DNA from: Candidatus Babelota bacterium
GTDB taxonomy: Bacteria; Babelota; Babeliae; Babelales; Vermiphilaceae
DNA: 32,000 nucleotides
Direction of reading: 5' to 3'
NCBI GenBank assembly: GCA_039809905.1
Contig: JBDHVY010000001.1
Coordinates: forward strand, 1,050,001 to 1,082,000
The first letter of the stretch is position 1. Every line of letters starts with the position of its first letter. Below, in pieces: positions 482-29,539 of the stretch. Under the pieces are notes generated by a model. That model did no database searches. It was not told the DNA's origin and saw nothing but the letters and a program-made list of their open reading frames with translations. The position numbers and the translations under genes are program-made.

Positions 482-514
482 TTTACCGGGGGCCCTATTC
501 GTAATATAATGGAA
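482..514 (+). promoter_or_regulatory. GC-cored palindromic motif, copy A (candidate promoter/operator upstream of tsf)
   Basis: TTTACC(482-487)-GGGGGCCCTATTCGTAA-TATAAT(505-510)-GGAA. This is a 17-nt spacer that begins with the palindrome GGGGGCCC (488-495). It aligns with copies D, E and F. Confidence 0.5.
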
Positions 515-582
515 TTACAAGGCTACATTATTCGTAGTGCAATTAAAAATAACAATATTTTTTACTTCTAACAGGAAAGCAT

Positions 583-1908: not shown

Positions 1909-3342
1909 ATGCATATAATTATTATAGTGTTTTTATTCGGGGGTATTTTTATTGCACCCATTATTTATGGTAAAGGAGGAAAAAGCCCACAAGCAAAGCC
2001 TATTCCGGTTGGAGTACAAAAGCCGATAATGGGACAGCCTTTACCTTCCTCGCAACTTCCTTTTCGGTATACTCTGCCGATTAACATATCAAAAGAAAAA
2101 ATAATCAGTCAGCTTAATGAACTATTGCAGCAATCAGAAGTTGATGATACATGGTATGCCTCTGTAGATGACTTGATTTTTGATTTAGCACTTTTGGATA
2201 GAAATCTATCCCGTGAATATCTCAAAAAAATTCATAATAAAATAGTTCAAATTGCTGTAGCAGCAATGCCTGTGCCTTCTGTGGAAAAAGAGGTACCAGT
2301 ACCTCCTGTTGTGAGTGAGCCAGTGAAAAAAGAAAGTCCTCAGATGGCACCAGAAGGAATGAAAAAAGGTACACCTCCAGCACCGCCAGTGCCAATGAAG
2401 AAAGGTGGTACTCCACCACCTGCCCCGGGACCAATGCAAAAAGGGATACCGCCAGCACCACCAGCGCCAGGTCAAATGAAAAAAGGTGGAACACCACCAC
2501 CACCCCCTGGACCGATGGCCCAAGGAAAGAAAAAATCTACTCCTTCTGCTACAGGGCCGGCGGCACCGGCCGCACCGAAAGGGCCTGAGCTGCTATCGAT
2601 AGATCAAACATATGGTCTTAGACAACTGGAAAAGCGAACAACGGAAGAATTAAAAGAGCTATTTGATAAATTAATAGAAGCCTTGGCAAGTAAAGATGCT
2701 TTCTGGAATGCAGAAAAGAAAAAACCTCAAGCTATTTGGGAAAATAGAATAGATACTCTCAAAAAAGTTTTATTAGCAAGAGATCCAAAAGGTGGTTTTG
2801 CTGAACAAATAGCCAAACGCATTATTCAAGTAAGAAATGAAAAGGACCAAAAAGGATTTGAAAAACAAGCAGCTGCTGAGCAAGAAAAGAAAAAAGAAGA
2901 ACCCAAAGAAGAATATACAGAAGAACAATTGCTTAAAGAAATAGAGCTTTTGAAAAACAATGCAAAGCCTGGTGATATTTCATGGTCAATTAATTTTCGA
3001 GGGGCTGTAATAAAGTTAGATACTTTTAATCATGAAAAAGCTCTTGAATATGAGGCCTACTTCATCAAAATGAATCCAGGACAAAAGCTATTTTTACCAA
3101 AAAAGAAAGAAGCTCTAGTTAAAAAAGAATTAACAGAGCAAGAGCAACTTGTTGCAAAGATCGATAAGATTATCGCTGACAAAGAAAATAATCTGCTCTG
3201 GAATATCAAGGTAAGAGAACCAATTCAAGAATTATATAACATGAATCAAGAATTAGGTCTTAAATACCAACAAAAAGTTATCGATATTGCTAAAAAAGAT
3301 ACAGGAAAAATTGATAAGCCCTTTTTACAACTGAAGAAATGA
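1909..3342 (+). CDS. membrane-anchored/secreted proline-rich repeat protein (FH1-like polyproline tract), function unknown
   Basis: 477-aa ORF with AAGGAAA SD and a hydrophobic N-terminus MHIIIIVFLFGGIFIAPIIY. Central repeats are M(K/Q)KG(G)(T/I)PPPAPxP, and the C-terminal half is Lys/Glu-rich. Confidence 0.7.
   Translation: MHIIIIVFLFGGIFIAPIIYGKGGKSPQAKPIPVGVQKPIMGQPLPSSQLPFRYTLPINISKEKIISQLNELLQQSEVDDTWYASVDDLIFDLALLDRNLSREYLKKIHNKIVQIAVAAMPVPSVEKEVPVPPVVSEPVKKESPQMAPEGMKKGTPPAPPVPMKKGGTPPPAPGPMQKGIPPAPPAPGQMKKGGTPPPPPGPMAQGKKKSTPSATGPAAPAAPKGPELLSIDQTYGLRQLEKRTTEELKELFDKLIEALASKDAFWNAEKKKPQAIWENRIDTLKKVLLARDPKGGFAEQIAKRIIQVRNEKDQKGFEKQAAAEQEKKKEEPKEEYTEEQLLKEIELLKNNAKPGDISWSINFRGAVIKLDTFNHEKALEYEAYFIKMNPGQKLFLPKKKEALVKKELTEQEQLVAKIDKIIADKENNLLWNIKVREPIQELYNMNQELGLKYQQKVIDIAKKDTGKIDKPFLQLKK
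2359..2520 (+). repeat. in-frame tandem coding repeat (4 units of about 13 codons) encoding polyproline blocks
   Basis: Units are MKKGTPPAPPVP / MKKGGTPPPAPGP / MQKGIPPAPPAPGQ / MKKGGTPPPPPGP. This is a local GC-rich island made of CCN codons. Confidence 0.85.
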
Positions 3343-3410: not shown

Positions 3411-3486
3411 GGGTTGCTAGCTCAATTGGTAGAGCAACAGACTCTTAATCTGTGGGTTCTTGGTTCGAGTCCAAGGCATCCCACCA
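3411..3486 (+). tRNA. tRNA-Lys (anticodon CUU), CCA encoded
   Basis: Cloverleaf read by eye. Acceptor GGGTTGC/GCATCCC has one T-T mismatch. D arm is GCTC-AATTGGTA-GAGC. Anticodon arm is ACAGA-CTCTTAA-TCTGT. T arm is CTTGG-TTCGAGT-CCAAG. The 3' end is A-CCA. Confidence 0.9.
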
Positions 3487-3599
3487 TACTTTGCGTAAAG
3501 CTTCGTATGGCAGGCCTGTTCTTTGTAGCTTGTAGAGCGTATAGAGACAATTTGAGTGTAGTTAGCAAAAACTGAAATTAATATGCCTTTGAAATTTGT

Positions 3600-3684
3600 G
3601 CAAGAGTGGCGGAATTGGCAGACGCGCTGGACTTAGGATCCAGTGCCGAAAGGCGTGTGGGTTCAAGTCCCTCCTCTTGCACCA
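3600..3684 (+). tRNA. tRNA-Leu (anticodon UAG), class II with long variable arm, CCA encoded
   Basis: Acceptor GCAAGAG/CTCTTGC is perfect. Anticodon arm is CTGGA-CTTAGGA-TCCAG. Variable arm is GCC-GAAA-GGC. T loop is TTCAAGT, with one T-T mismatch in the T stem. Confidence 0.85.
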
Positions 3685-3689
3685 GACTT

Positions 3690-3723
3690 TTACCCCAACT
3701 CCATATATTTCGTTGGGGACCCG
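3690..3723 (-). promoter_or_regulatory. GC-cored palindromic motif, copy B (best match on the minus strand)
   Basis: Minus-strand reading is GGGTCCCCAAC-GAAATATATGGA-GTTGGGG. The 7-bp arms are CCCCAAC/GTTGGGG (3693-3699 / 3712-3718). The core GGGGACCC is at 3715-3722. Confidence 0.5.
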
Positions 3724-3850
3724 AACAAAAAAATAACAGCTTTGTTTTCTTTCTTTATCTTCAATTATTTCAACAAAACTTTCTTCCCTTGCAAAATTAT
3801 TCTAACTATAGCAGTCTTCATAAAAAGGATTTTTTTATGAAAGGCCTCGT

Positions 3851-5167
3851 ATGAAGCAAAAAGTTATGTTAGATACTGATGCTCTTTTTAGCGTTGAACA
3901 CAATTATGAACAACCAACATTATGTCGCGCTACGATAACAGTTTCTCGGTCACTCGTAAAAACATTCTTTGAAGAAACAGCAGTTGCTTTAAAAGGTAAT
4001 ATCCAAGCTTATGGATTCCAACAAGGCGAAGTTCCGATTGAATATATATCAAAACAATATAAAACTAACATTACTGAACATTTAAAAGAGTTTTTTTTTA
4101 AGTTCGGAATTGTTAATTTTTTATTTCAAGAAATTAGAGCACAAAAATTACTGGTTGCAGGAGACCCTCGTCTGATTGATATTTTTTTGGAAAATGATAG
4201 TGATGCTCGATTTATTTTTGAATTAAGTATTTTCCCGATGATTGCTCTTAACGAATGGAAGTATTTTCCTTTTAAATCACCTAATCGAAAAAATTACAAA
4301 GATCTTGATCGTCAAGTTGAAGCATTTATTCAAGAAGAGCAAAAAAATTTAGAAAAACATACGGATAATACTATTGCTATTGGCGATTGGGTACATTTTG
4401 ATGTTTCGGTAGTCAATAAAGAACATATTGCTTTAGATGAACGTTGTGTGCAGAAATTTTGGTTAAAATTGGGCAATGAAGAAGTAGAAAGCAATTTGCG
4501 CGCTTTATTTGTTGGCAGAAAAAAGGGCGATCAGTTTATTGTTAACAATAGAGGATTACAAGATTATTTTAGCGACCAATTGCGTGCTTCTTATAATTTT
4601 AAAGTTAATATAACTGATGTTGTGCCTCATGCTTATTTTTGTTTTGACCAATTTAAAGACCATTTTAGAATAAAAACAAATAAAGATATGCACAAAAAAT
4701 TAATTGAGGTCTTTTCGTATCGTAATGATGTTTCGCAACGTCTTGCCATGGTAGAAGAGGCATTTAAATTGCTTCTTTCGCGGCATCGGTTTTTTGCACC
4801 CAGTTATCTTGTATTGCGCCAGCAAAAAATAATTTTAAGTGCAATTCAAAGTAATCCAGATTATAATGTATACCGAAAACAAAAAAATTTTAATTTTTGG
4901 ATTCAGCAATTGGCTGAAAAACAAGTAAAAGAAACATTGCTTATAGATCAGCTGATTTATCGTGAAAATATAGTGGTTACTAATGAAGATATAGTTAATT
5001 ATTTAAATTTGGATAAACGACCGCGTATGAGAGAGTTTATCTATTTTAATTTGCCAGATTTTAAACAATATGGGCAAGAAGTACCGTTATCAATGCATGA
5101 ATTGAGTAGGATTTGTGCTCGGGAAAAAGCAATTAATTATGTTATTCATTATTTAACAAAAAAGTAA
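3851..5167 (+). CDS. tig: trigger factor (divergent)
   Basis: 438 aa, a typical trigger factor length. The N-terminal ribosome-binding signature GFRxGxxP appears here as AYGFQQGEVPIEYISKQY. The rest is too divergent to confirm by eye. Confidence 0.6.
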   Translation: MKQKVMLDTDALFSVEHNYEQPTLCRATITVSRSLVKTFFEETAVALKGNIQAYGFQQGEVPIEYISKQYKTNITEHLKEFFFKFGIVNFLFQEIRAQKLLVAGDPRLIDIFLENDSDARFIFELSIFPMIALNEWKYFPFKSPNRKNYKDLDRQVEAFIQEEQKNLEKHTDNTIAIGDWVHFDVSVVNKEHIALDERCVQKFWLKLGNEEVESNLRALFVGRKKGDQFIVNNRGLQDYFSDQLRASYNFKVNITDVVPHAYFCFDQFKDHFRIKTNKDMHKKLIEVFSYRNDVSQRLAMVEEAFKLLLSRHRFFAPSYLVLRQQKIILSAIQSNPDYNVYRKQKNFNFWIQQLAEKQVKETLLIDQLIYRENIVVTNEDIVNYLNLDKRPRMREFIYFNLPDFKQYGQEVPLSMHELSRICAREKAINYVIHYLTKK

Positions 5168-5182
5168 AAAGTCTTTTATTAA

Positions 5183-5218
5183 GGGGTTCCCCATGTAAAG
5201 GATAACCGTAACATGGGA
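5183..5218 (+). promoter_or_regulatory. GC-cored palindromic motif, copy C (trxB leader hairpin)
   Basis: GGGGTTCCCC (5183-5192). Arms CCCATGT (5190-5196) and ACATGGG (5211-5217) flank a 14-nt loop. The 3' arm GGGA is the only SD-like element, 8 nt before the trxB ATG. Confidence 0.5.
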
Positions 5219-5226
5219 TATACATC

Positions 5227-6162
5227 ATGGAAAACAAAATTCATAAACTTATTATAATTGGTTCAGGACCAGCAGGTTTAACTGCAGCTATCTATGCAGC
5301 TCGTGCTAATCTTGAGCCAATTATTATTGACGGTAATGAGCCAGGTGGACAGTTGATGAAAACATCATATGTTGAAAATTGGCCAGGTGAAAAGAGTATT
5401 CTTGGGCCAAAACTTATGATGAACATGCGTGATCACGCAAAACATTTTGGTACACAATTTGTTTCTGGCAAGGTTACCAAAGTCGACTTTTCTAATTCTT
5501 ATGCAAAAAAAATTATTGTTGATGATAAACTTGAGCTGCAAGCACATGCAGTGATCATAGCAACTGGAGCAACACCAAAGCGATTGAATGTTCCTGGTGA
5601 AGATATTTACTGGGGTAAAGGTGTTATAACCTGTGCAGTATGTGATGGTGCGTTTTATCCAAATAAAAAAGTGATTGTTGTTGGTGGTGGTGATACTGCC
5701 ATGGAAGATGCATCATTTTTGAAAAAATTTACGCGCGATATAACGATAGTTCATATTCTTGATCAGTTTACTGCTTCACATGCAATGCAACAACGAGTTA
5801 TTAATGATCCTGATATTAAGATTTATTATAGTAGTACCGTTACAGCATTTCATGGCAATGATGCCCATGTTACCTCAGTTACCATTACCAATCAAGTAAC
5901 AGGTGAGAAAAAGCAACTTGATGCAGATGGGGTATTTATAGCGGTTGGATTAAATCCAAACTCTGATCCGTTTAAAGATCATCTTGCCTGCAATAAGGGT
6001 GGTTGGTTGGAAACAACGATCGGGGAAGTTGGTACGGCGATCCCGGGAGTATTTGTTTCCGGTGACGTGCATGACTATCGATATCGTCAAGCAATCACTT
6101 CTGCCGGAGCAGGCTGTATGGCAGCTCTTGATGCAGAACGATATTTATCAGAACATTTTTAA
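5227..6162 (+). CDS. trxB: thioredoxin-disulfide reductase
   Basis: 311 aa. FAD motif IIGSGPAGLTAAIYAARA, redox-active CAVCDG, NADPH motif VVGGGDTAMEDA, and a C-terminal GDV..YRQA motif. Confidence 0.93.
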   Translation: MENKIHKLIIIGSGPAGLTAAIYAARANLEPIIIDGNEPGGQLMKTSYVENWPGEKSILGPKLMMNMRDHAKHFGTQFVSGKVTKVDFSNSYAKKIIVDDKLELQAHAVIIATGATPKRLNVPGEDIYWGKGVITCAVCDGAFYPNKKVIVVGGGDTAMEDASFLKKFTRDITIVHILDQFTASHAMQQRVINDPDIKIYYSSTVTAFHGNDAHVTSVTITNQVTGEKKQLDADGVFIAVGLNPNSDPFKDHLACNKGGWLETTIGEVGTAIPGVFVSGDVHDYRYRQAITSAGAGCMAALDAERYLSEHF

Positions 6163-6755: not shown

Positions 6756-6814
6756 AAATATTGATTGAGCTGAATTTGTATGGGGTCTTCATATATCCGG
6801 ATATTCCGGTTTTT

Positions 6815-6847
6815 GGGGTCCCCATACGCAATAAAATGGAGTATGGG
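6815..6847 (+). promoter_or_regulatory. GC-cored palindromic motif, copy D (rnpA leader)
   Basis: GGGGTCCCC (6815-6823). Arms CCCATAC (6821-6827) and GTATGGG (6841-6847) flank the loop GCAATAAAATGGA, which contains TAAAAT (6832-6837). Confidence 0.55.
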
Positions 6848-28690: not shown

Positions 28691-29539
28691 TCATTGTTTA
28701 AAAGTAATGATCAGAGGGTTTCCATGTGTCCATTGTGGCATTTTCATTGAAAATAGTGCTTGGCGAGCAGAAATATCAAACATCATTACACCAGAACTTT
28801 TTACCATCTTTAAATTTTCTACTGTTCCTTTTTGAGTAACAAAAAAAGATATATCACAGGTGCAATCTGATGACACGCCTATCGGTGGATGCCATTTTTG
28901 TACTAATTCTTTTTGCAATTGTGCTCCGCGGCGCAATGCTTCAACTTCACGATAATTATTCGAAACAAGAGCTTGCGTATCATTTTTTGTGGTGTTTTCT
29001 TTTGGTTCTATTTTTTTTTCTGCTGTTTTGGCAACTGCCGGTTCAGTAACATTCTTTGCTGCAGGTTTTTCTGGTGTTGATTTTTTTGCTACGGGAACTT
29101 CTGTATTTTTTTGCACAATAGGTTTTTCTGCTGCTGTGGTTTTAACGGGTTCAATCGGAATAACTTTGTTTATGGATTCTGTGCTCTTTTTTGTATTTGT
29201 TTTTGCAGGTTGCGTTGTTATTGTAGTTGCCTTAGCAGGCTCTTTTTTCGGTGGTGTCGCTGTGGTTATAGCAGGTTTCACTGTATTTAACGTGCTATGT
29301 TTATCCTCTTCAGCTTTTTTAGGGGTTCCCTGCGTAGCTTTAGCGGAGCAGGGTAAAAATAGTATAGGAATTGAATAATCCATTTTTTTATTAACGGAAA
29401 AAGCATACATATATTTATTTTCACGATAAATGCAAAAAATCCATAACAGTAGGATTGCATGTAAGCTTGCGCAAAAGCCTATTATTTTAAGCCACAGCAG
29501 ATGTTTTTTGTGAAGGTTTTTGCGTTGCAAGAGCCACAT
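28691..29539 (-). CDS. tolA: TolA/TonB-family protein
   Basis: N-terminal TM LWLKIIGFCASLHAILLLWIFCIY, a long Pro/Lys/Thr/Ala-rich spacer, and a C-terminal TonB_C-like fold (ISFFVTQKGTVENLKMVKSSGVMMFDISARQAL). ATG 29539 overlaps tolR by 53 nt, so the true start may be further downstream. Confidence 0.65.
   Translation of the reverse strand: MWLLQRKNLHKKHLLWLKIIGFCASLHAILLLWIFCIYRENKYMYAFSVNKKMDYSIPILFLPCSAKATQGTPKKAEEDKHSTLNTVKPAITTATPPKKEPAKATTITTQPAKTNTKKSTESINKVIPIEPVKTTAAEKPIVQKNTEVPVAKKSTPEKPAAKNVTEPAVAKTAEKKIEPKENTTKNDTQALVSNNYREVEALRRGAQLQKELVQKWHPPIGVSSDCTCDISFFVTQKGTVENLKMVKSSGVMMFDISARQALFSMKMPQWTHGNPLIITFKQ

Follow-up and report, generated by a model that had tools for sequence, protein, structure and literature searches.

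The palindromic motif upstream of rnpA in a Candidatus Babelota genome is probably a copy of a REP-like repeat family of the Babeliales lineage

The stretch of DNA analysed here, referred to as the window, is a 32,000-nucleotide segment of a Candidatus Babelota genome, and the element in question is a GC-cored palindrome at positions 6815-6847, in the spacer between rpmH and rnpA. Our analysis indicates that this motif is probably one copy of a family of palindromic repeats of about 43 nt that resembles the repetitive extragenic palindromic (REP) elements and is carried by a Babeliales (Dependentiae) lineage, rather than a promoter or an operator. The copies share a hairpin structure with strand polarity, are dispersed, form dimers, have been gained and lost between close relatives and are found as in-frame insertions; the family behaves like inserted DNA of the junk type, not like a promoter or the site of a regulator. 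A preliminary description, made from the letters of the window alone, had offered three candidate roles (a lineage-specific promoter, an operator, or a leader that sequesters the Shine-Dalgarno (SD) sequence), none of which suits the family as a whole.

Results

The core in the window and the architecture of the unit

The core GGGGNCCC is present in the window at 488, 3715, 6815 and 7430, four distinct sites that amount to six strand-matches where 0.21 were expected, a count that 0 of 100 shuffles reached; the string GGGGNNCCCC, found at 5183, had an expectation of 0.01. With an imperfect core at 18709-18717 and a further one in coding sequence at 29322, six of the seven core sites lie in non-coding DNA, which makes up 10.3% of the window (P = 7.6e-6), and the GC content of the source contig (Logan SRR27308757_1164, 54,983 bp) is 34-35%. 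The GC-cored GGGGNCCC(C) element reported at the outset is therefore real, strongly enriched and almost entirely intergenic. The same is not true of TAWAAT-GGAR as a recurrent motif: TAWAATGGAR by itself is not enriched in the window (three matches vs 0.93 expected, and 10 of 100 shuffles reach three), and TAWAAT is present in only 4 of 42 loops.

The unit can be written as (T-rich/TTAA) GGGG-T, CCCC-R-NN(N), GNA, NN, triloop, N'N', GNA, (N')N'N'-T-GGGG, TWAAAAG. Its parts are an unpaired 5' tag (GGGG-T), a lower stem of 6-9 bp, a 3x3 purine internal loop (5'-GNA/5'-GNA), a 2-bp upper helix capped by a GNA-type triloop, and an A-rich tail (TWAAAAG). In the flank matrices, most units carry a GGGG tag with T or A as the next base; GGGAT, GGAGC and GGCCTG are occasional variants, and the flank on the 5' side of the tag is T/C-rich and often reads ..TCTTAA... 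The hairpin has 29-35 nt by itself and 43 nt when the tag and the tail are included, and it agrees with a REP in being a short imperfect palindrome (20-40 bp) that can form a stem-loop. Its loop of about 13 nt is itself structured, with a 5' GNA in 33 of 42 loops and a 3' GNA in 32 of 42, the latter being GGA in 17 cases. The upper helix is most often AT/AT (9), GC/GC (7) or AC/GT (5), with AA/TT, GA/TC and GG/CC also found, and the triloop is GAA in 11 cases, AAA in 5 and GTA in 4; loops typical of the relatives are GAAACGTAGTGGA, GTAGCATAGCGGA and GGAGAGGATCGGA. In terms of this anatomy, 'TAWAAT + GGAR' corresponds to an AT/AT upper helix with an AAA or ATA triloop, followed by the GGA of the purine internal loop.

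Conservation of the hairpin

In a gapless alignment of 17 units, 92.4% of the pairing cells hold a pair vs 69.2% after shuffling, and the covariation score is 0.668 vs 0.243, a value that 0 of 500 shuffles reach and that collapses when the partner is slid. A model-based alignment of 53 distinct matches gives a similar picture (91.4% vs 66.9%). The covariation of the lower stem is partly circular because its pairing served as a criterion for picking units; the upper helix, which was not such a criterion, pairs in 64 of 72 cells vs 40.9 +/- 2.8 in shuffled data (0 of 20,000 shuffles reach this number), and RNAalifold predicts the lower and upper helices independently. These figures agree with the earlier proposal that compensatory changes in the arms reflect a conserved hairpin, and the arm pairs CCCATAC/GTATGGG, CCCATGT/ACATGGG and CCCCAAC/GTTGGGG, together with the imperfect arms at 7430, are as claimed. 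What does not stand is the appended contrast with simple repeat copies, since the copies do belong to a dispersed repeat family.

The fifth pair of the stem is R:T. Among the 53 model matches, G.U occurs 10 and 9 times at two inner stem positions and non-standard pairs are rare, and among the 42 listed units G.U outnumbers A.C by 17 to 7; this large excess of G.U over non-standard pairs on the 'forward' strand indicates that one strand is the folding strand. GNA triloops and sheared G.A-type internal loops are typical of very stable single-stranded DNA mini-hairpins as well as of RNA motifs, and the relevant fold could be that of DNA or of RNA.

Distribution among relatives

Relatives were represented by TrxB-anchored loci (L-numbers) from GTDB genomes and JGI metagenomes, labelled Candidatus Dependentiae, Babeliales or TM6. 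Units in them were found with a scan for the core, then with a scan for GC-clamped hairpins and then with a family covariance model (R1), which provided the bit scores and E-values in the window and in the relatives. Across about 860 kb of related loci the model yielded 69 matches, of which 53 are distinct sequences and nearly all are intergenic; further units lie in L085 and L086. They are concentrated in a patchy subset of lineages (L002, L016, L019, L020, L023, L027, L029, L030, L032, L038, L042/L079 and L005); the distant L071 (53% TrxB identity) has units too, whereas most of the remaining loci have none. Both orientations are represented, and the sites include intergenic and divergent spacers, the 3' ends and the interior of genes, and the flanks of tRNA genes, where units stand on one side or the other with their orientation mirrored; in L002, L016 and L029 a unit lies 13-30 nt upstream of tRNA-Leu.

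We identified at least nine tag-to-tag inverted dimers with a G4-N-C4 junction (for example L042 1733-/1764+, L079 2169-/2201+ and L032 4477-/4511+), so that inverted dimers are frequent in this family, as in the bacterial interspersed mosaic elements (BIMEs) formed by REPs. Since the '5' GGGG' of one unit in a dimer is the 3' arm of its partner, GGGG-N-CCCC (GGGGNCCCC) is a junction, and the 5' flank of single units resembles the tail of a lost partner. The GGGGNCCCC palindrome is thus accounted for by two inverted units that meet, or by the remains of such a junction.

Gain, loss and in-frame insertion

In the great majority of relatives, the tig-trxB spacer (20-30 nt) and the rpmH-rnpA spacer (about 20 nt) are motif-free; the relatives in which they are filled form a patchy subset, with TrxB identities of 79% or more (L011, at 79%, has a degenerate copy). 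Such short, motif-free spacers indicate operon-internal junctions of co-transcribed genes that later received an insertion. Orthologous tig-trxB units with other stems occur in L032, L027, L020 and L018, and occupied spacers differ in their stems between lineages (ATGT/ACAT, AGC/GCT, TCAC/GTG). The rpmH-rnpA spacer of the window measures 92 nt vs about 20 nt in most relatives, including L024 (95% TrxB identity), and relative to the 22-nt spacer of L024 the segment 6779-6847 is a 67-nt insert; long-hairpin inserts homologous to it are found in L029, L019 and L028. The GTATGGG direct repeat around 6779-6847 belongs to the insert and is not a target-site duplication (TSD), because it is lacking from the empty site of L024.

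Genes have received units as well. In cca of L030 (2070-2171), which encodes the CCA-adding enzyme, a cluster of 102 nt, consisting of a partial unit and a dimer with a conserved ..AAATCCCTCTTAA.. left flank, replaces 12 nt and adds 30 aa in frame. Immediately behind the GGAVRDMVMN motif, the encoded VPLH is thereby exchanged for DSKSLLIRGPQFIPTSAIASSGSPCEMKCNIGLN; the open reading frame (ORF) is intact (489 aa). The insertion is absent in L029, L002 and L016 (459-463 aa), and this combination of an in-frame insertion, an open frame and empty orthologues is that of the Rickettsia palindromic elements (RPEs). The tolA copy of the window is also in frame, antisense, in the linker after the transmembrane helix of a TolA/TonB-like gene; the string at 29322 had been regarded as merely comparable, but it belongs to a genuine member of the family. 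This copy is kept in three relatives, L085 and L086 among them, its arms (CCCTGC/GCAGGG vs CCCGCC/GGCGGG) having changed in a compensatory way that alters the encoded residues, and the wobble in L085 is G.T on the forward strand of the unit, which is antisense to the mRNA (A.C in the mRNA). Decayed copies are those at 488 and 7430, the copy of L011 and a remnant upstream of phoH. In the same region of L085, a polymorphic-toxin cassette (10921-12589) with PT-HINT/Ntox21, a CdiI_N immunity-like gene and a small ORF stands between tolA and tolB; it is absent in the window.

Copies in the window and the adjoining contig

The features of the window are collected in Table 1; over 43 kb, the source contig contains 8-9 copies. 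Two of the sites first described, 3715 and 18708, do hold copies, but these are minus-strand units, which mirrors their geometry with respect to the gene downstream. The former lies beside tRNA-Leu (3600-3684, +). The tail of the latter overlaps the stop codon of a sigma-54 activator gene, and together with a degenerate partner on the plus strand, at 18709-18736, it would form a tag-to-tag dimer. At 488, the core and the loop-like GTAATATAATGGA are present, whereas the 3' arm is absent, the model score of 5.5 bits is too low for the site to count as a member, and no stable fold is obtained (z +0.28); intact units occupy the argS-tsf spacer in L016, L030 and L042. The degenerate copy of the yidD-nfeD spacer has a better preserved orthologue in L023 (1963-2005), and the marginal unit after tRNA-Lys has a full counterpart at the same place in L038; its loop type, GC-TTTA-GC, is common to the tolA copy, L006 and L030. 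The segment 15766-15796, proposed as a looser relative, gives no match to the family model, and of the second partial unit proposed at 18793-18831, before xerC, only a nearby partial match at 18743-18765 (-, 16.4 bits) could be recovered.

Table 1. Repeat units and the competing hairpin in the window, with scores under the family covariance model
Feature	Position	Strand	Bits (E)	Composition and remarks
Unit D, rpmH-rnpA spacer	6814-6856	+	44.2 (1.4e-11)	TGGGGT, CCCCATAC, GCA-AT-AAA-AT-GGA, GTATGGG, ATG of rnpA; RNA hairpin alone -10.6 kcal/mol
Unit C, tig-trxB spacer	5183-5226	+	30.6	GGGGTT, CCCCATGT, AAA-GG-ATAA-CC-GTA, ACATGGG; fold with both helices, -12.7 kcal/mol
Unit B, 8 nt past tRNA-Leu 3' end	3685-3724	-	31.7	GGGT, CCCCAAC, GAAATATATGGA, GTTGGGG, TAAAAG
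Unit E, degenerate, yidD-nfeD spacer	7429-7471	+	14.9 (0.013, window-only search); weak match	GGGGT, CCCCAGCC, AAAAAAAATGGA, GGCAGAGGG
Unit F	18675-18717	-	34.4 (1.4e-8)	GGAGC, CCCCAATC, GCA-AT-GTA-AT-GAA, GATTGGAG, TTAAAG
Intragenic unit in tolA	29320-29361	+	25.3	encodes ..FLPCSAKATQGTP..
Decayed copy, argS-tsf spacer	488-522	+	5.5 (9.6)	GGGGGCCC and loop-like GTA-AT-ATA-AT-GGA, no 3' arm
Marginal unit of a sister sub-family, after tRNA-Lys	3484-3510	-	9.4 (0.64)	CCATAC, GAAGCTTTACGCAAA, GTATGG
Larger competing hairpin	6779-6827	+		GTATGGGG...CCCCATAC, encloses CCGGA-TAT-TCCGG-TTTTT, terminator-like

In the RNA of the rpmH-rnpA spacer, the predicted hairpin of unit D appears to compete with a more stable upstream alternative. 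In the centroid fold of 6756-6860, positions 6779-6786 (GUAUGGGG) pair with 6820-6827 (CCCCAUAC), so that CCCCAUAC does not pair with the downstream GUAUGGG; a small CCGGA/UCCGG-U5 hairpin is enclosed, and the GGAG-N6-AUG of rnpA is left unpaired.

Other elements were observed alongside the family. A second repeat, at 10652-10787 of the window, is a palindrome of 136 bp resembling a MITE (a miniature transposable element bounded by inverted repeats), with perfect 21-nt terminal inverted repeats (TIRs; TCCGCTCGCCCTGAGTGTTTT) and an 18-nt inner inverted repeat; copies of it occur in L002 (including its rpmH-rnpA spacer), L006, L030, L034 and L040. Unit dimers are nested inside some of these copies, between the TIR and the inner repeat (L030 12360-12429). 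Directly after tRNA-Leu, L002 has a 131-nt insert (8065-8233) with a canonical terminator inside and a hairpin unit at its end, followed by an exact 36-nt duplicate of the 3' part of tRNA-Leu (aaaggcgtgtgggttcaagtccctcctcttgcacca); it resembles an att-type remnant left behind when an element integrated into the tRNA gene. In the source contig beyond the window (L083), composite units of 73 nt at 4062-4134 (+) and 5190-5262 (-) flank mnmA in inverted orientation, with a CTTCG-TAGCTTCAG-CGAAG hairpin nested in the apical loop, and one of them overlaps the annotated mnmA 3' end. The sigma-54 activator encoded at 15965-18682 of the window (905 aa, Sigma54_activat) has a long N-terminal multi-pass membrane region and implies sigma-54-dependent regulation in this reduced genome. 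A sigma-54 promoter was tried as an explanation of the units and rejected: GG-N10-GC fits only the 6815 copy by eye, and the units do not match the -24/-12 consensus. Finally, an ORF of 477 aa at 1909-3342 has no Pfam match and includes a proline-rich tandem segment (..KKGTPPAPPVPMKKGGTPPPAPGPMQKGIPPAPPAPGQMKKGGTPPPPPGPM..); at the same position, relatives either lack this ORF or show little conservation of it.

Discussion

Proposed spread of the family and points against a REP-like reading

By analogy with REPs, the units would spread as non-autonomous DNA mobilised in trans, perhaps by a Y1/HUH enzyme that recognises hairpin plus tag, similar to the REP-associated tyrosine transposases (RAYTs). 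Within operon spacers they would be co-transcribed and form an RNA hairpin of -10 to -14 kcal/mol; if this hairpin has an effect, it may be REP-like, as an exonuclease barrier or through segmental mRNA stability, and the G-run beside the start codon may also be masked by it at 5183, 6815 and 7430.

Several observations weigh against a family of inserted, REP-like elements. Single units are sense rather than reverse by 24:7 (P = 0.0017), or by 16:7 when orthologous sites are collapsed (P = 0.047), a bias that hints at selection at the RNA level and not at pure selfishness; in these syntenic loci, however, the orientation of units cannot be separated from that of the genes or from the G-rich strand. 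At the filled and empty sites of cca and rpmH-rnpA, no TSD or exact element ends can be defined, and the cca insertion, having replaced 12 nt, is not a clean one. Stems differ in nearly every copy, with only L030 2141 and 16968 near-identical, and they therefore provide no evidence of very recent bursts. With regard to the mobilising enzyme, a tblastn search of about 0.9 Mb of loci with an IS200 TnpA query found no IS200/RAYT-like ORF (no match better than E 0.15), which is a weak test; the gene tables of the same loci show no mobilising enzyme, and 10 unassigned ORFs in the neighbourhood of unit clusters, when scanned against Pfam, gave no transposase, only Fic, pentapeptide and beta-eliminating lyase domains. 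The tag is GGGG(T) and not the GTAG or CGTC that defines the known REP super-families. A viral source received no support from a scan of IMG/VR contigs, which gave a single chance match, inside a GC-rich ORF.

Alternative explanations

The sense bias is among the features that would be accounted for by a selected functional RNA, that is, a phylum-specific hairpin read by a dedicated RNA-binding protein or RNase. The hairpin would tag sites within operons and beside tRNAs that are to be processed, stabilised or translationally coupled. The stems vary, but the purines of the internal loop and the structure as such are conserved, G.U is polarised to one strand, many copies lie just upstream of an SD sequence or start codon or beside tRNAs, and the structure is kept inside tolA despite amino-acid changes. 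We nevertheless consider this explanation rather unlikely: the RNA presented would not be the same for the seven reverse singles, for the antisense tolA copy and for the tag-to-tag dimers, the wobble of the L085 tolA copy is G.T on the non-transcribed strand and A.C in the mRNA, and orthologous sites are mostly empty, with copies that decay (as at 488 and 7430, in L011 and upstream of phoH). GNA triloops and sheared G.A pairs are, moreover, at least as typical of stable single-stranded DNA hairpins, and no Rfam family corresponds to the units; in gathering and permissive Rfam searches only two tRNAs pass the threshold, with no credible sub-threshold match on the units. A lineage-specific promoter, in which the GGGGNCCCC box, a TAWAAT -10 element and a GGAR discriminator drive housekeeping genes, is very improbable. 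It is true that the 488 copy coincides with a TTTACC-17-TATAAT consensus match, and that several window copies are upstream of genes, as are the units near tRNA-Leu in L002, L016 and L029, but the rarity of TAWAAT among the loops and the covariation of this segment as a helix are contrary to such a function. The units have no consistent or conserved -35 element and do not show the -35/-10 pair, fixed spacing and orientation of a sigma-70-type promoter, and sigma-70-like matches in the window do not exceed shuffles (78 vs 81 expected). The minus-strand unit at 3685-3724 would fire into tRNA-Leu in antisense and that at 18675-18717 into a gene 3' end, one copy lies inside tolA, and most relatives have motif-free 20-nt spacers at the same junctions.

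Binding of a dimeric regulator to GGGG-N-CCCC in double-stranded DNA would agree with the 9-bp palindrome being the most invariant part of the unit and strongly avoided elsewhere in the window. This palindrome is, however, accounted for by the tag plus the 5' arm, or by the junction of inverted units, and an operator would leave the polarity, the hairpin covariation and the G.T wobbles unexplained; copies tagged GGGAT, GGAGC or GGCCTG keep the hairpin, and the positions of the units relative to genes are not those of a regulon, all of which makes an operator highly improbable. An SD-sequestering, thermometer-like leader controlling the translation of trxB, rnpA and nfeD is suggested by the 3' G-run, which at 5183, 6815 and 7430 lies at a distance of 0-9 nt to the start codon and takes part in the pairing of the hairpin, and at 6815 the alternative upstream pairing (6779-6786) could free it. 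Sequestration is conceivable only locally, at these three sites, the only window copies that abut a start codon; a general function of the family it cannot be, and as an explanation it is exceedingly improbable: most members are away from start codons (tRNA flanks, 3' ends, divergent spacers, genes), the GGAG SD of rnpA lies in the loop and not in the stem, and unit-free orthologues have no G-rich SD at trxB or rnpA, so that no essential SD is masked. An intrinsic terminator was rejected, the T-run being upstream of the unit and TWAAAA downstream; canonical terminators are present elsewhere in the window, for example at 1814-1852.

Significance of a probable REP-like family

With the REP-like repeat as the preferred reading, the misleading notion of a 'lineage-specific promoter' in an uncultured phylum gives way to a palindromic repeat family with a unit definition and a covariance model of its own. 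With this model, metagenome-assembled genomes of Dependentiae can be masked or annotated, and odd differences in intergenic length and small in-frame insertions in conserved genes (cca, tolA) can be given an explanation; filled and empty sites can serve as markers for strain tracking. It is a less likely, although conceivable, extension that the hairpin, with its G4 tag, GNA/GNA loop and GNA triloop, is the recognition module of a Dependentiae-specific protein, either a new hairpin-directed mobilising enzyme or an RNA-binding or processing factor; we regard this as a minor possibility. If true, the repeat would be a signal in active use across the genome, serving for instance in the processing or stabilisation of mRNA inside operons or in the processing of tRNA flanks, and in-frame insertion into essential genes would still go on, in the manner of the RPEs of Rickettsia.

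Comparison with known repeats

Our literature search found no relevant paper on the motif or on repeats of this kind in Dependentiae, and the passages of PMC3733652 on which we draw do not link the phylum to REPs. With MITEs such as Correia/NEMIS, ERIC and RUP, the family would share the character of small non-autonomous elements that lie in the spacers beside genes, that are co-transcribed and whose hairpins are able to alter mRNA stability, and TTAA-like sequences often bound the unit. It differs from them in its length (about 43 nt vs 70-300 bp) and in having neither TIRs of 15-30 bp nor a demonstrable TSD. RPEs are likewise palindromic repeats of an obligate intracellular bacterium that are found in frame within ORFs, as in tolA and the cca of L030. 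In the passages of PMC3733652 consulted for this comparison, RPE-1 measures 100-150 bp and the short RPEs are CGTC-tagged, whereas the units reported here are mostly intergenic; the likeness is one of description only.

The closest parallels are with REPs and BIMEs, which fall into GTAG- and CGTC-tagged super-families (Di Nocera et al. 2013, PMC3733652; Nunvar et al. 2010, PMC2817692). According to Di Nocera et al., REP sub-families differ by complementary changes in the stem and have G.T pairs, their complex loops contain trinucleotides that are not complementary and end in GC/GC, dimers are spaced by 1-2 bp, and many singletons are what remains of a dimer; stop codons may be overlapped, and some copies are intragenic, among them the RPEs of Rickettsia. 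On this account, the present family resembles REPs in being a hairpin of 20-40 bp with an unpaired terminal tag, in its stems of 6-9 bp with complementary sub-family changes and G.T pairs, in the trinucleotides that separate the stem from a short inner loop closed by GC/GC, and in its inverted dimers 1-2 bp apart with singletons resembling dimer remnants; in the loci analysed it is also mostly extragenic, near ORF ends, with overlap of stop codons and occasional intragenic copies. The differences are a GGGG(T/A) tag in place of GTAG or CGTC, a stem clamped by four G-C pairs with an inner stem that differs in nearly every copy, a GNA-type internal loop and triloop, and the negative, weak test for a RAYT in about 0.9 Mb of loci. 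The family thus extends REP/RPE-type elements to another obligate intracellular lineage, with a tag unlike GTAG and CGTC that raises the question of which enzyme mobilises it. On the basis of this tag, and with no RAYT or transposase found in these loci, we file it as a REP/RPE-like family and not as a member of either super-family.

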